Source: Octopus vulgaris
Lineage: Eukaryota
Direction of reading: 5' to 3'
Assembly: GCA_951406725.2 (NCBI GenBank)
Contig: OX597841.1
Coordinates: forward strand, 6,324,001 to 6,388,000
Length of the DNA: 64,000 nucleotides
This document shows positions 190 to 55,020 of the stretch, piece by piece (the stretch's first letter is position 1; each line of letters opens with the position of its first letter). Under the pieces are notes generated by a model. It did no database searches. It was not told where the DNA came from and saw only the letters and a program-made list of their open reading frames with translations. Position numbers and translations under genes: made by a program.

Positions 190-722
190 AAAAACGATTT
201 CAAGATTATCTTGCTCAAATTCTTTCATCAAAAGACGGAGATGTTCAAAGGGCTTGAGAAAATCTTGATTTCAAGATGATGACCTCAGATTTTATACAGA
301 TTCAGAAGTCAAACATTTGTTCGACTGTTACATCTGTATAAAAGCTGAGGTCCTCTTTTTAAATCCTCGTCTTTTGATGAAAGAATTTGAGGAAGATCAT
401 CCTGTTATCATTATTGATTGCTTTATTTGTGCAATTCTGTATCATGGGGCAGAAAACGATGTTATATATGGATACGACGATGAAGTGAAGCTAGATGCGT
501 TGCTTTCTTGCCCGGGACTCGATTGCTGTCCATCATTATAGGGAATAATTAAATTAATCTTTAGTCAAGCTGGTCGTGAGATTAAGAAATCGATGCTGGT
601 AGATCCGGATTAAAACTATCTTGCCTCTCTTGAATTCCAATTCAAAATATAATGGCTGTAAGCTAATGCCTCAGATTATATCAACCTTGCTCAAAAACCG
701 AAAATTTGAGAGAGGAAGTAAA
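190..722 (+). pseudogene. Degenerate caspase-3/7-like pseudogene
   Basis: DCFICAILYHG..NDVIYGYD..LDALLS..CPSL then TAG at 539-541. QAGRE replaces QACRG, so the catalytic Cys is lost. Most of p10 is deleted, but KLMPQIISTLLK..KFE survives at ~660-720. The 3' flank matches the other caspase loci. Confidence 0.85.
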
Positions 723-1029
723 ATATTTCTGGTGTGGGACCCTTAAATAGATATGGAACTTCTTACGGTGAGAATTTCTGACGCATCTGCATATTGTACG
801 AAAAGAATATGGTTTAGAAACACACACATCCAGAGATGCAACGGAGTAGATTTTAAAACCTCATGTATATACATGTATATATATATATATATATATATAT
901 ATATATATATATATATATATATATATATATATATATATATATATATATAGATAGATAGATAGATAGATAGATAGATAGATAGATAGATAGATAGATAGAT
1001 AGATAGATAGATATAGATATAGATATATA

Positions 1030-1152
1030 TATAATAAACCTTTACATAAATAAATAACGTGAAATACACGAAGGGACGAACATAAGAGACAGACGGGTCA
1101 TTCAAAGCCTTCGTTCTTCAGTCAGAAACCGATTCCTCATCGCAGATTTCGA
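1030..1152 (-). mobile_element. Short repeat abutting (TA)n, probably a Penelope-like 3' remnant
   Basis: Reverse complement matches 23659-23780; both copies end in TA microsatellite. Confidence 0.5.
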
Positions 1153-1431
1153 TACATATATATATACATATATATATATACATATATATAACATGACTAT
1201 TTCCACAGGTAACACCAACAGCATAAATTGATAAATAGATAAATGTAATATTTTCAGCTAAATAATTGCTAAAATGATCATGAACGTGATACTTAACTAA
1301 AAGTATTTCTCAGCATGAATTTTATTAAGAACACCTGTGCCTTTATTAAGAACACCTGTGCCTTATAGTTAAATTCTAAATTTCAAAAGGATCTGTGTGT
1401 GTGTGTTTGTGTGTGTGTGTGTATGTGCGTG

Positions 1432-1810
1432 TGTCTATCTGTGTACGATTGCGCACGCGCCCTCCATTCTATTCCACCTTTCACCCCCCTCACTGATTTC
1501 GAAGCAAATGTCACCTTCAACACGACATGAAACGAGAAAGTAAATATATAAAACTTCGTGACGGAAATTACCGAAGATTTAGACCCTCAACGAAACATTG
1601 CCGAATTTTTAAATTCCAAATACTGAAAGAAAGACTCTTTACGGATATTTTGCACCGTGTATCTGACCGTTTAACCCTCTTACCTATGAGGGCAGCCTTC
1701 AGATATATTTTCGTGTGACCCTTTTTTGATTCAAATATCGGCGCAATTCGGTTGTACCCCTATCTCAACTCTCTCTATTTTTCAAAAATATCTCAGGCAT
1801 TCCTATTTTT
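1432..1810. repeat. Segmental duplication block of the caspase flank
   Basis: Near-identical to 10930-11310; a diverged copy lies at 4460-4730. Confidence 0.85.
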
Positions 1811-2699
1811 TTGTTATCGAGGATTATGATTTGGGGTAACAGTTTTTTATTTTACTTTTTTGCTTAATCAACGGAGATTTCGAATGTGAAAGATAGATTT
1901 TTTCAATTTTAAACTTTCAGAAAGAAAGATCCAATGTCATTCCTCCTACATTTTTCTTCTTACAAAAACTAAGAAATTCCGAATGTTGTACATATTGAAC
2001 ATGTGTCTTTGCGCCCGCGTAGATTTCGCCCGAACAGAAGATGAAAAATATGGACCCCTCAAAGAAAATTCAACATGCTAGAAATAACAGCTAAATGAGG
2101 GGAAAATCGTTTTTCTGCGGCATAACCACATGTTACTTTTAAGTCATTGGATTAATCCCAGCAAAATACTCCAAGTTTAATCCCTGGCCAGACCTATCCC
2201 AGCACGATCCCACTTAAGAAAACCAAACAGGTTTCACACAAACACACAACCAAGCACGCACACACACACACACACTTCCACACACAACACATACACATGT
2301 ACGATCGCGTTTATCATGCAATTGACCGTCATTTTTACAGGGAAAGTAAATTGTCCTTGGAAAATGAAACTGTTTTGAAATACAAAGCTAAGTGGCACTA
2401 AAGAAATGCTGAAATGTCATACGTACAATATATGATGCCATTGTCGTCTGCGTCATCGCCGTGAACGACGCCATCTTAGAAAGCATTTAGTGCTGTTTAT
2501 CAATGTTTTCCGGGGAGTTGATTTACACGAGAGCCCTCAGAAGATAGGAAGGCTGCAACAGGTTCCAGACTGGATGCTAGACACAGCCGAGGCGTTCGTA
2601 ATGGAAAGTGTAGAACTGGGGTCCAATATATTTACAGACGAGTGAGCCAGTTACCACAATTTCCAAACACTTGTCTTTATTGACGCCATTGTGAAATAC

Positions 2700-52018: not shown

Positions 52019-52320
52019 ATATTAGAAGAAATGAGGTACTCAGAAATTCGGATGGTTTTATATTTACAGATATTTATTTGTATATTACATGTTTTTATAC
52101 ATCATATAACTTATATCATATATCATATGTTAACGCTTTCGTCCATTCTGGTGGATTTTTCAAATTGAACTCAATTTGAAAAATCCACCAGAATGGACGA
52201 AAGCGCTGATTTATGATATATTATATAAGTTATATAATGTATAAAAACATGTAATATACAAATAAATATCTGTAAATATAAAACCATCCGAATTTCTGAG
52301 TACCTCATTTCTTCTAATAT
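52019..52320. repeat. 150-bp-arm palindrome with hammerhead-like motifs
   Basis: 52019-52168 and 52171-52320 are inverted with a 2-nt spacer. Confidence 0.85.
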
Positions 52321-53361
52321 TAAATACCTGTACATCATCTCCAAACCTTCTAATATATATATATATATATATATATATATATATATATATATATATATAC
52401 GTATATATACTTGTTGTGCAAGATTTTTTATGTGAAGTCGTGTGTTGAAATAGATATTGTTATATTTCGGAATGGTCATTTTGCCAGTTTAGCCAATAAA
52501 AACACACGCACTATATATTTGGTGTTACTATATTTGGAGTTCTTTCGTCACACTCCTGTGACCGCATCAGTGAAATTTAATTATTTTATCGGCGGAAGTA
52601 AAGAATGCGCACACCACTCGTTTTCATCGTAACCCTAACCCGAACCCAAAACCTGAGCCCAAAACCCTAACCCTAAACCCGACCCTAATCATCGGAGGTG
52701 CATGTTCTTTACCTTCGCCTGTTTATCATAAATTTTTTTACGCACACAACAAAATTATATCACAACCTTTCTTTCACACTTTAAATATTTTCATAAATTA
52801 AAAACTAGCGTAAAAACTTATACATTTTATTATTTCGTTGTCATTTCAGAGACTCTGTGTTGATAACAGGAGATTATTCACCATAGCAACAAAGAAAAAA
52901 AATGGAATAATTGAAAAAGATATAACGCAATGGTGCTGAGATAGTTTAATGCAGTGAGAGAAGAAAGATAAAAAATTTCTCTTTGCCAGAGAAACTGTTA
53001 CGAATCCAGCGATATAGGACGATACATGAATAAAATAGCCTAGATATTAATATTGTTCATATTTAGTTGTATATAAAAGAATGTTGGTTCAATTTTCAGA
53101 GTGTAGAATTATTTTGAAATTTAGAATGTTCGCAGAAGGCACTGGTGTTTTTAGTAAAATTCATGGTAGGAAATAGTTTTAGTTAAGCACCTAAAAATGT
53201 TAGTGGATATTTATTAAGTCAAATCAAGTTTGTAATCATATTAGTAATTTTTTGGTTGAAAACATTATATATACTTATCAATCTATACTGCAGGTTTTAC
53301 GAGTAAAAACTTTGTACTTCTTTGTAGATATATGAGTTCCTAAAATATGCTATTTTTGTAA

Positions 53362-53680
53362 TTAAGAATGTATGTTTACCGAAATATCTTCGTTCCTCCG
53401 TTCAAACTTTGGATTTTTGAGCAATGTCGACATAATCTGAGGCATTTGTTTACAACCATAGTATTCCGGATTATCCGAACTTTGGAATTCTAAAGAGGCA
53501 ACATAGTTAGCGGTTAAAAGTGTCATCATTTCGTATTTAGTGCCATATTCCTTCAACATTTTACTTAAAGTTTGCATAAACCACGAACCTGTATCTTTAT
53601 CCTTCATTGACGGATATTTATTTGGTGACGAATGGAAAACCAACATATCTGCCATGATTGGAATTTTCGGTGGCTTTTTC
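53362..53680 (-). pseudogene. 5'-truncated caspase (small subunit only)
   Basis: KKPPKIPIMADMLVFHSS..GSWF..KQMP. Directly upstream is the 3' flank of the 54157 gene. The S1 Arg is replaced (SMKD). Confidence 0.85.
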
Positions 53681-54156
53681 TCTTTGGGAGAGAAACTTTT
53701 ACAAATCCAGCGATATAGGAAAATACATGAATAAAATAGCCTAGATATTAATATTATCCATATTTAGTTGTATAATTAAGAATGTTGGTTCAATTTTCAG
53801 AATGTGGAATTTTTTTGAAATGTTGACTGGACCTATAAGTCACTGGTGTTCTTAGTAAAATTTGTGGTAGGAAATAGTTTTAGTTAAGCACCTAAAAATG
53901 TTAGTGGATATTTATTAAATCAAATCAAGTTTGTAATCACATAAGGACTTTTTTTTGCTGAAAACCTCATATTAATCTATTTATCAATATATACTGTAGG
54001 TATTATGCGTGAAAACTGTGTACTTCCTTGTAGATATATTAGTTCCTAAAATATGTGTTTGTAAAATATATTCTTTTCGTATAATATGGAGATGTATCAG
54101 AAATTCTCACCGTAAGAAGCTTCGATTCTCTTTAAGGATCTCACACCTGAAATGTT

Positions 54157-55020
54157 TTACTTTCTCAGCTCAAACTTTAGTTCTTTGCGCAACGTCGACG
54201 TAATCTGCGGCATTTGTTTACAATAATAGTTTTTCGTCTTATTCGAATTTTGGTATTCTAAAGTGGCAACATGGTTACAGACCGCAGTTAACAGTTTCAT
54301 AATTTCCCATTCAGTGCCATATTCCTTCAATATTTTACTTAAAGTTTGCATAAACCACGAACCTGTATTTTTATCCCTTATTGACGGATATTCTTTATGC
54401 GACGAATGGAATACCAACATATCTGCCATGATTGGAATTTTCGGTGGCTTTTCTTCAAGTCCGGAACTGCGAGCATCTTCGGAACTGCAATCCTCTTGGT
54501 AACTGCAAGCATCTACTTCTTCGACTCCAACATCAATCTTGCTTCCACGACATGCTTGAATAAATATTAATTTAGGTATTCCTTTTAGAGATGGACAGCG
54601 ATCGGGTCTCAGGCAAGAAAGCATTTCGTCTAGCTCAGCTTCACCCGCGGATCCATATATGATATCGTTTTCACCGCCATGGCTCAGAATCGCACAAATA
54701 AAGCAGTCAATATTATCTTCAATATCAGGATTATCGTTGTGAAAGTCTTCCAAAGCCTCGAACATCTCCTTCTTTGTTGCATCTGTATAAACTTTGATAT
54801 CAGTCTCGTGAAATCCAAGTTGTATTAATGCCGTTTTAAAATCTTCTGTGTCTTTTGATGAGCCGTGACGAATTGAAAGTTTTGAGTCTTTAAACTTCTC
54901 ATTGTTGAAGATGTAGACAACACCTCGCTTTTTATGTTTCATGTCATATTTATCGAAACATTTCCTTAAATCTTCCCCAGTTGTACTCACATTGTCAAGT
55001 TCACAATCCATATCATCCAT
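54157..55020 (-). CDS. Single-exon caspase-3/7-like protease with expanded linker
   Basis: 287 aa with RHGSSKD, LSHG, QACRG, linker EEVDACSYQEDCSSEDARSSG, and KQMP. Confidence 0.95.
   Translation of the reverse strand: MDDMDCELDNVSTTGEDLRKCFDKYDMKHKKRGVVYIFNNEKFKDSKLSIRHGSSKDTEDFKTALIQLGFHETDIKVYTDATKKEMFEALEDFHNDNPDIEDNIDCFICAILSHGGENDIIYGSAGEAELDEMLSCLRPDRCPSLKGIPKLIFIQACRGSKIDVGVEEVDACSYQEDCSSEDARSSGLEEKPPKIPIMADMLVFHSSHKEYPSIRDKNTGSWFMQTLSKILKEYGTEWEIMKLLTAVCNHVATLEYQNSNKTKNYYCKQMPQITSTLRKELKFELRK

Follow-up and report, generated by a model that had tools for sequence, protein, structure and literature searches.

The window analysed here, 64,000 nucleotides of the Octopus vulgaris genome (2.8 Gb; assembly GCA_951406725.2, contig OX597841.1, positions 6,324,001–6,388,000), carries an array of intron-free caspases with short prodomains. 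These genes belong to a clade of single-exon, executioner-derived caspases whose evolution by birth-and-death, gene conversion and positive selection is well supported; a retrogene origin of the clade is unproven, and its function is something we infer. An earlier note on this DNA, made from the sequence alone, had described six caspase loci. All are present where it placed them, namely four intact single-frame genes (c2, c3, c4 and c6), each with a full PF00656 domain (154–173 bits), and two decayed copies (psi1 and psi5, the former with an internal deletion that removes most of p10), but the count was too low, as the last three entries below are further remnants. The array is one end of a cluster of ~13 loci that extends ~38 kb upstream of the window.

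4922–5908, plus strand: c2, intact caspase, single frame, 328 amino acids, QACRG at 5390–5404
15797–16639, plus strand: c3, intact caspase, single frame, 280 amino acids, QACRG at 16274–16288
47027–47878, minus strand: c4, intact caspase, single frame, 283 amino acids, QTCRG
54157–55020, minus strand: c6, intact caspase, single frame, 287 amino acids
~225–873, plus strand: psi1, decayed caspase with proximal 3' flank; stop, frameshifts, catalytic Cys lost
53362–53678, minus strand: psi5, 5'-truncated copy (p10 half), S1 Arg changed to Lys
52572–53678, minus strand: psi5 with its 3' flank, adjoining the c6 3' flank at 53677/53678
2–156, plus strand: remnant, distal 3' flank of another copy, 72–77% to c3 17150–17328
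4729–4797: caspase remnant
6892–8007, plus strand: seventh remnant, the end of a caspase coding region (last codons) with its 3' flank, interrupted by a SINE-like (short interspersed nuclear element-like) repeat

That the copies spread by DNA duplication, as had been proposed, is borne out by shared promoter motifs, by flanks that continue past the transcript end and by a large inverted duplication. The long 3' flanks are indeed common to the copies, and homology between c3 and c4 runs to 17396, past the ends near 17302–17306 (the probable transcript end) of the c3 contigs from sequencing runs described below. The upstream block was said to be common to all copies as well, which it is not: the long block occurs only in c3, c4 and c6. 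The last two have ~645 bp in common, microsatellite included, and c3 has ~310 bp of this plus a proximal piece; c2 shares ~110 bp, and psi1 and psi5 share no upstream sequence.

15228–15796, plus strand: c3 upstream block, in common with c4 and c6, broken at ~15587–15684 by a high-copy repeat, NRF1-like palindrome at 15702
47879–48523, minus strand: c4 upstream block (shared with c6), with ETS-like core, NRF1-like palindrome and purine-rich microsatellite
4813–4921, plus strand: c2 proximal promoter-like block, NRF1-like palindrome at 4831
1–9053, no strand: arm of a young inverted segmental duplication carrying psi1, c2 and a remnant, by which c2 and psi1 are also doubled

All eight full-length genes of this contig have the NRF1-like palindrome upstream. 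In 11 of 15 clade genes an ETS-like core stands 15–65 bases before the ATG, versus none of the 20 other genes (with a background of 2.7% per 50 bases). The other arm of the inverted duplication, with the twin of c2, is situated 11–24 kb upstream of the window, and the arms differ at 122 of 8501 non-coding sites. Duplication has been accompanied by exchange. The gene c6 is a mosaic, a c3-like coding tract set in c4-like flanks: its informative sites are c3-like in 72 of 98 cases between coding positions 55 and 854 and in 5 of 80 outside, a pattern reached in none of 200 permutations. Mosaic tracts occur in three other triplets too, and psi5, truncated at its 5' end, has become joined to the 3' flank of c6. 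The duplication, the mosaicism of c6 and the psi5 fusion are all DNA-level events. Young duplicates coexist with pseudogenes and with members retained for long; the birth-and-death pattern suggested earlier stands, gene conversion being superimposed on it. A c4-like copy 3.3 Mb away (L003/L073, G000:C28:2.99-3.00 Mb) shares the upstream and 3' flanks, is the nearest relative of psi5 and, again, adjoins a C2H2 zinc-finger gene.

All four intact copies retain the catalytic His and Cys and the two S1 Arg, as the earlier note had it (the motif in c4 being QTCRG), together with the S1 Gln and the canonical linker Asp (CVTD-G in c2, EKKD-G in c3, ERND-A in c4 and EEVD-A in c6), and the prodomain is short, without CARD or DED, the domain beginning at residue 32–38. 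The loops around the substrate had been described as diversified. The L3 loop does read YSSFR or YPSIR, but since YPSIR is identical in c3, c4 and c6 it has two states and not four.

5522–5536, plus strand: L3 loop of c2, YSSFR
16406–16420, plus strand: L3 loop of c3, YPSIR (also the reading in c4 and c6)
5771–5833, plus strand: c2 read-through tail, two basic clusters with a caspase-type EETD-G site between them

The L4 loop before KQMP differs in sequence in all four, as claimed, but not always in length (21 residues in both c3 and c6, 25 in c4 and 20 in c2). Beyond the loops, the c6 linker carries a 12-residue insertion from an 18-base tandem repeat (54462–54514), and c2 reads GSCF where GSWF is expected. 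The family stop codon is missing from c2, which reads on into a tail (5762–5908) whose basic clusters resemble a bipartite nuclear localisation signal; a cut at EETD-G would break this putative signal. The tail is found also in the twin and in the O. sinensis proteins P0021, P0256 and P0257. Overall, c4 is 98% identical to O. sinensis P0002 and c2 97% to an O. sinensis protein, and two neighbouring caspases match proteins named Octopus vulgaris at 100% identity.

Site models of the ratio of non-synonymous to synonymous rates (dN/dS, or omega), which the earlier note had proposed as a check, were run in our own GY94-type implementation on 13 full-length genes, with a core of 226 gap-free codons. 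Overall omega is 0.71 and M2a beats M1a with a likelihood-ratio test (LRT) statistic of 60, placing 55% of sites at omega 0.18, 29% at omega 1 and 17% at omega 2.88. The omega>1 result holds with F61 frequencies and without the three mosaic or twin copies (LRT 58), in both domain halves (p20 35.5, p10 23.5), and in the four window genes (29.6), the genes of this contig (42.4), those on contig C19 (8.7) and the eight genes with whole active sites (18.9); a further cluster on contig C5 gives 38.8. Maxima under simulated null models were 5.1 in 8 runs without recombination and 9.0 in 22 runs with heavy mosaicism. Neither dN/dS uniformly near 1 nor any other testable outcome that the earlier note had named as speaking against it was found. 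With loops defined from a caspase-7 alignment, sites with posterior >0.9 make up 12 of 65 loop positions versus 7 of 161 non-loop positions (12 of 38 against 7 of 56 when only variable sites are counted, p 0.035), and they include the Tyr204- and Phe256-equivalent positions. The idea of diversifying loops thus holds in that positive selection is enriched in those of the cleft, but non-loop surfaces are selected too.

The young pair formed by c2 and its inverted twin gives independent testimony. The two carry 25 changes among 533 non-synonymous sites and a single one among 154 synonymous sites, to be set against the 122 of 8501 flanking non-coding sites (p 1e-6 versus non-coding), so that non-synonymous divergence is 3.4 times the flanking rate and synonymous divergence is not raised. 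Proteins of O. sinensis mix c2 and twin residues, and the c2–twin differences may predate the flanks, having been maintained in the face of conversion; selection is needed for them whether they are older or not. The many A/G changes between the two copies had prompted the idea of an RNA-editing imprint (copies made from A-to-I edited transcripts), which we reject: synonymous transitions in nine young pairs have no A/G excess (purine 31 of 1089 versus pyrimidine 41 of 1474 opportunities). Selection on the same sites in the C5 cluster and in this clade was likewise rejected, and as only one of eight C5 sites coincides with a selected c3 site, no parallel between the two is claimed.

To place the array, trees of 53 rows were built, with supports given as Shimodaira–Hasegawa-like approximate likelihood-ratio (SH-aLRT) values from a fast tree search; most caspases of contig C26, some of C5 and redundant database rows (18 of 110 in one set) were left out. 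The genes of this contig, of C19 and of C7:8.76 Mb form one long-branch clade (SH-aLRT 100), and all single-exon caspase-3/7-like loci tested group together with Argonauta and two further proteins (98.7). Two database proteins join the clade, one from O. bimaculoides and one other. The intron-bearing octopus caspase-3/7 pairs instead with a Gigantopelta protein (100); the deep nodes are weak, and within that limit the clade is not orthologous to conserved molluscan or vertebrate caspase-3/7. Because O. bimaculoides counterparts exist for several subgroups, the clade is older than the split from that species. Among the best 150 representatives of 1.84 billion proteins, those above 45% identity were two octopus clusters and no non-octopus relative, squid and Nautilus not being identified among the results.

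The earlier note had also supposed a retrogene founder, of which one part is rejected. The comparison with mollusc caspases that it had suggested found no intron-bearing sister parent, and a recent retrocopy of the intron-bearing caspase-3/7 is rejected, since forcing that gene alone beside the single-exon group costs 74 log units (p-AU, from the approximately unbiased test, 7e-8; 30 rows, 5000 replicates). Placing it there in company with its gastropod orthologue is compatible with the test (p-AU 0.25), which leaves room for a retrogene founder only if the event was ancient and preceded the cephalopod–gastropod split. We give a little less than an even chance to the proposal that the whole single-exon clade descends from one caspase-3/7 retroposed before or early in cephalopod evolution, with DNA duplication thereafter. 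It would account for the absence from every clade member of the coding introns of the conserved gene (three inside the domain) and fits both the single grouping of the single-exon loci and the old origin that the test leaves standing; in Mytilus coruscus, according to the sections of the survey drawn on here, 45 of 47 caspases are intron-rich and one is intronless (PMC10967218). Set against it are the missing sister parent, the rejected recent origin and the fact that no poly(A) tract follows the probable c3 transcript (the 1.3 kb beyond the stop contain no run of 9 or more A, a kind of trace that decays with age). The CARD-type caspases of the genome are also single-frame, so that intron loss may have come by another route. 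As for the claim that each coding region is a single exon, all are single frames, but strict single-exon status is shown only for c3, whose contigs run colinear with the genome from 142 bases before the ATG to the 3' end (a repeat covers the 5' end), because a public model of c4 (P0255) adds a spliced tail after the domain, and a GT does follow the last c4 codons.

A search of the genome with c3 yielded at least 71 matches from 83 candidates, and 50 long single open frames covering most or all of the caspase domain were recovered from the matched stretches: 8 on this contig, 5 on C19, 16 in the C5 cluster (with the canonical YSWR-type loop), 15 in the C26 cluster (whose N-terminal part is CARD-like) and 6 at scattered places. 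Against these stand three multi-exon caspase genes, a minimum since such genes are harder to detect by this search; one is the caspase-3/7 with three introns inside the domain, at positions that we take to match those of human CASP3. Within the clade, the His–Cys dyad and the S1 Arg/Gln/Arg are whole in 8 of 13 full-length genes. The other five lack active-site residues, yet their frames are open, and two of them have dead O. bimaculoides counterparts.

Several of these loci have features of their own. The C5 cluster (C5:54.15-54.52 Mb, L016-L030 and L038-L046) comprises ~22 single-exon loci with the YSWR-type loop, several of them frameshifted and many with His at linker P2, and C26:33.70-33.82 Mb (L051-L060) with L048 holds ~20 single-frame CARD-type caspases, several with Tyr for the catalytic Cys. 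Single-frame pseudo-caspases without the catalytic dyad occur at L047, L017 (C7:8.76 Mb), L049 and L050, and the C7 pair is conserved, with counterparts in O. bimaculoides and in one further record. In L010, L026, L030 and L049, cleavage behind an early Asp would yield AVP- or AKP- N-termini, which resemble the motifs that bind inhibitor-of-apoptosis (IAP) proteins. L014/L015 (G000:C28:6291339-6292096) is a broken paralogue: shortly ahead of the catalytic motif, a run of T carries a frameshift of one base, which may be an assembly error or a polymorphism.

Evidence for expression centres on c3, which is probably transcribed. The c3 stretch is present in 20 of 24 listed runs, none of them on record as RNA. 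In four, from four studies, that we guess to be RNA, it appears as one colinear contig (15655–17302/17306, two runs) or as abutting pieces (two runs), with little cover on the unique c3 flanks. Two of the probable RNA runs also yield a minor contig, in which five variants agree with the frameshifted upstream paralogue at 6.291 Mb (L014/L015), a close allele of that copy.

15655–17306, plus strand: probable c3 transcript, in gap-free single contigs, AATAAA ~55 bases before the end

At the protein level, 3 of 9 caspase peptide rows among those listed for the O. vulgaris skin-mucus proteome are of the subgroup type, one of them weak (PMC10138644); an ink-proteome supplement had no caspase rows, and caspase transcripts in haemocytes have been listed without identities (PMC4199593).

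A model of c3 (predicted local distance difference test score, pLDDT, 85.8) superposes on caspase-7 and -3. The S2 pocket of caspase-3 is described, in the part of the structural work used here, as Tyr204, Trp206 and Phe256, and the P4 contacts as position 208, Trp214 and Phe250 (PMC1931592). The equivalents of this aromatic cage are Pro/Ile/Tyr in c3, Pro/Ile/Asn in c4 and c6 and Ser/Phe/Glu in c2, the third position being uncertain where L4 length differs; position 208 changes from Asn to Asp in c3, c4 and c6, and Trp214 to Cys in c2. The intact enzymes are predicted to be dimeric caspases, activated by a cut after the conserved linker Asp and cleaving after Asp. Since the caspase-3 S2 cage is lost, they are predicted to prefer P2–P4 residues other than DEVD, and Asp-directed, non-DEVD cutting would go with altered binding of substrate-mimicking inhibitors.

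The array sits among many microsatellites and SINE-like repeats, two C2H2 zinc-finger frames and reverse-transcriptase elements, of which the last listed below are presumably Penelope-like.

27034–27942 and 37441–38937, opposite strands: C2H2 zinc-finger frames that arose by inverted duplication (92% over 1.3 kb) and separate the plus-strand caspases from those on the minus strand
28752–29662: 48-base tandem repeat, ~19 copies, open in several frames
30950–36300: ~28 head-to-tail copies of a ~188-base SINE-like unit
57787–64000 and beyond: two reverse-transcriptase elements, 99% identical and inverted, one with a 753-aa open frame; further copies a short way downstream, outside the window

Executioner caspases are as a rule conserved and few in number. 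We consider it slightly more probable than its negation that the octopus genes are instead fast-changing defence proteases at body surfaces, and not routine cell-death executioners, in a single-exon clade shaped by duplication, conversion and positive selection; an immune or otherwise non-apoptotic role, as the earlier note had suggested, is plausible. The sequences show that the intron-free, short-prodomain caspases of an apparently octopus-restricted clade multiply by DNA duplication as units made up of their own proximal promoter motifs, a single coding exon and a 3' flank. Copies are born, exchange patches by gene conversion and decay; amino-acid change is faster than neutral change, and positive selection is concentrated around the substrate cleft. 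Under the proposal, this would be driven by shifting microbial inhibitors or targets, paralogues that are catalytically dead yet conserved between species would be decoys or regulators, and ordinary apoptosis would fall to the conserved intron-bearing gene and the YSWR-type cluster. A bolder version seems rather unlikely, though worth stating: a combinatorial defence repertoire of single-exon cassettes, differing between individuals, in which cleft loops reshuffled by gene conversion would provide active enzymes of new specificity, variants that have lost the arginine which binds Asp, and dead decoys, all of them directed in skin mucus at inhibitors or proteins of microbes.

Several findings weigh against the defence proposal. 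Non-loop sites alone reject neutrality (LRT 26.9), so the signal is not specific to the specificity pockets. Relaxed constraint contributes, given that 29% of sites are at omega 1 and that pairwise core omega is 0.4–1.0 in 10 of 11 pairs; the L3 core is identical in three of the four window copies, and our codon models have no multi-nucleotide or synonymous-rate terms. The runs covering c3 are only guessed to be RNA. The subgroup-type mucus peptides are devoid of the first S1 Arg and agree with none of the frames examined in the assembly, hinting at a paralogue or allele absent from it, and skin mucus also holds shed-cell proteins. In one alternative, positive selection is real and the role is non-immune, namely octopus cell turnover or remodelling (skin, sucker shedding, regeneration, senescence), in the manner of a differentiation caspase. 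Skin mucus is reported to be rich in caspases, which change with senescence and captivity (PMC11431876), and the possible nuclear-targeting tail of c2 and the housekeeping-type promoter motifs would suit such a role; yet fixed host substrates are not expected to drive repeated change in young duplicates, nor mosaic shuffling and apparent turnover between individuals or species, and we regard this alternative as unlikely. A second alternative, a redundant and largely neutral expansion in a region where repeats abound and DNA rearranges, with relaxed drift and loops tolerant of change, would find room for the many pseudogenes and remnants, the overall omega, the microsatellite- and SINE-rich setting and the non-synonymous rates near synonymous ones in two of three mutation classes of the pooled young pairs. 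It is already strained, however, by the rejection of M1a in every subset tested, the excess non-synonymous divergence of c2 and its twin, the 55% of sites at omega 0.18 and the orthologues kept in O. sinensis and O. bimaculoides, and we think it improbable.

An executioner-type lineage with such a single-exon, mosaic structure and with positive selection around its cleft would offer a testable effector family for the poorly known immunity of cephalopods, and it offers protease biologists a natural library of S2–S4 variants on one scaffold. Hits to 'caspase-3' or 'caspase-7' in octopus welfare, senescence or infection studies may stem from dozens of non-equivalent paralogues, some of them dead.

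Octopus proteins of this kind are already in print as table and tree. Wang et al. 2024 (PMC11543851), in the parts at hand, count 12 effector caspases in O. bimaculoides, 26 in O. sinensis and 25 in O. vulgaris under 'CASP3/6/7-like', and their Supplementary Data 1 includes the O. sinensis orthologues of c4 (XP_036355819.1) and c2 (XP_029654380.2); in those parts octopus is mentioned only in a figure legend, without structure, clustering, mosaicism, selection or pocket analysis. A literature search that covered few subscription journals gave no account of octopus caspase gene structure, mosaicism or selection; a possible caspase expansion has been noted in squid (PMC9389742), and the main text of PMC11463336 does not mention octopus. 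The caspase-3/6/7 expansions of bivalves (Mytilus coruscus, PMC10967218; oysters, PMC7836458), for which immune and stress roles have been proposed, are alike in tandem duplication and varied active-site motifs as far as the consulted sections go, but the mussel genes are intron-rich and the octopus clade is single-exon and a separate lineage. The noctuid Lep-Caspase-1/-2 (PMC3141678, in the extracts used) are intronless effector caspases in tandem with a diverged linker site; that pair differs in that one duplicate is under purifying, relaxed selection, without a large array, mosaics or omega>1. The same source cites decoy caspases described in Diptera. With human caspase-3 and -7 the octopus enzymes have in common the fold (template modelling score, TM, 0.92–0.93 on target; root-mean-square deviation from 1.9 A), the short prodomain, the dyad, S1 and the linker Asp, but identity is ~37%, the S2 cage Tyr204/Trp206/Phe256 is replaced and the trees do not place them as orthologues. 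A parallel in mode of evolution is the primate CASP1/4/5/CARD locus (PMC11630849, in the passages available), with duplication, loss, gene conversion, positive selection, decoy-like derivatives and an arms-race reading. Those genes are CARD-bearing, inflammatory and intron-containing, and their selected sites are not active-site-enriched, whereas in the octopus clade selected sites are enriched in the cleft loops of an executioner-type fold.

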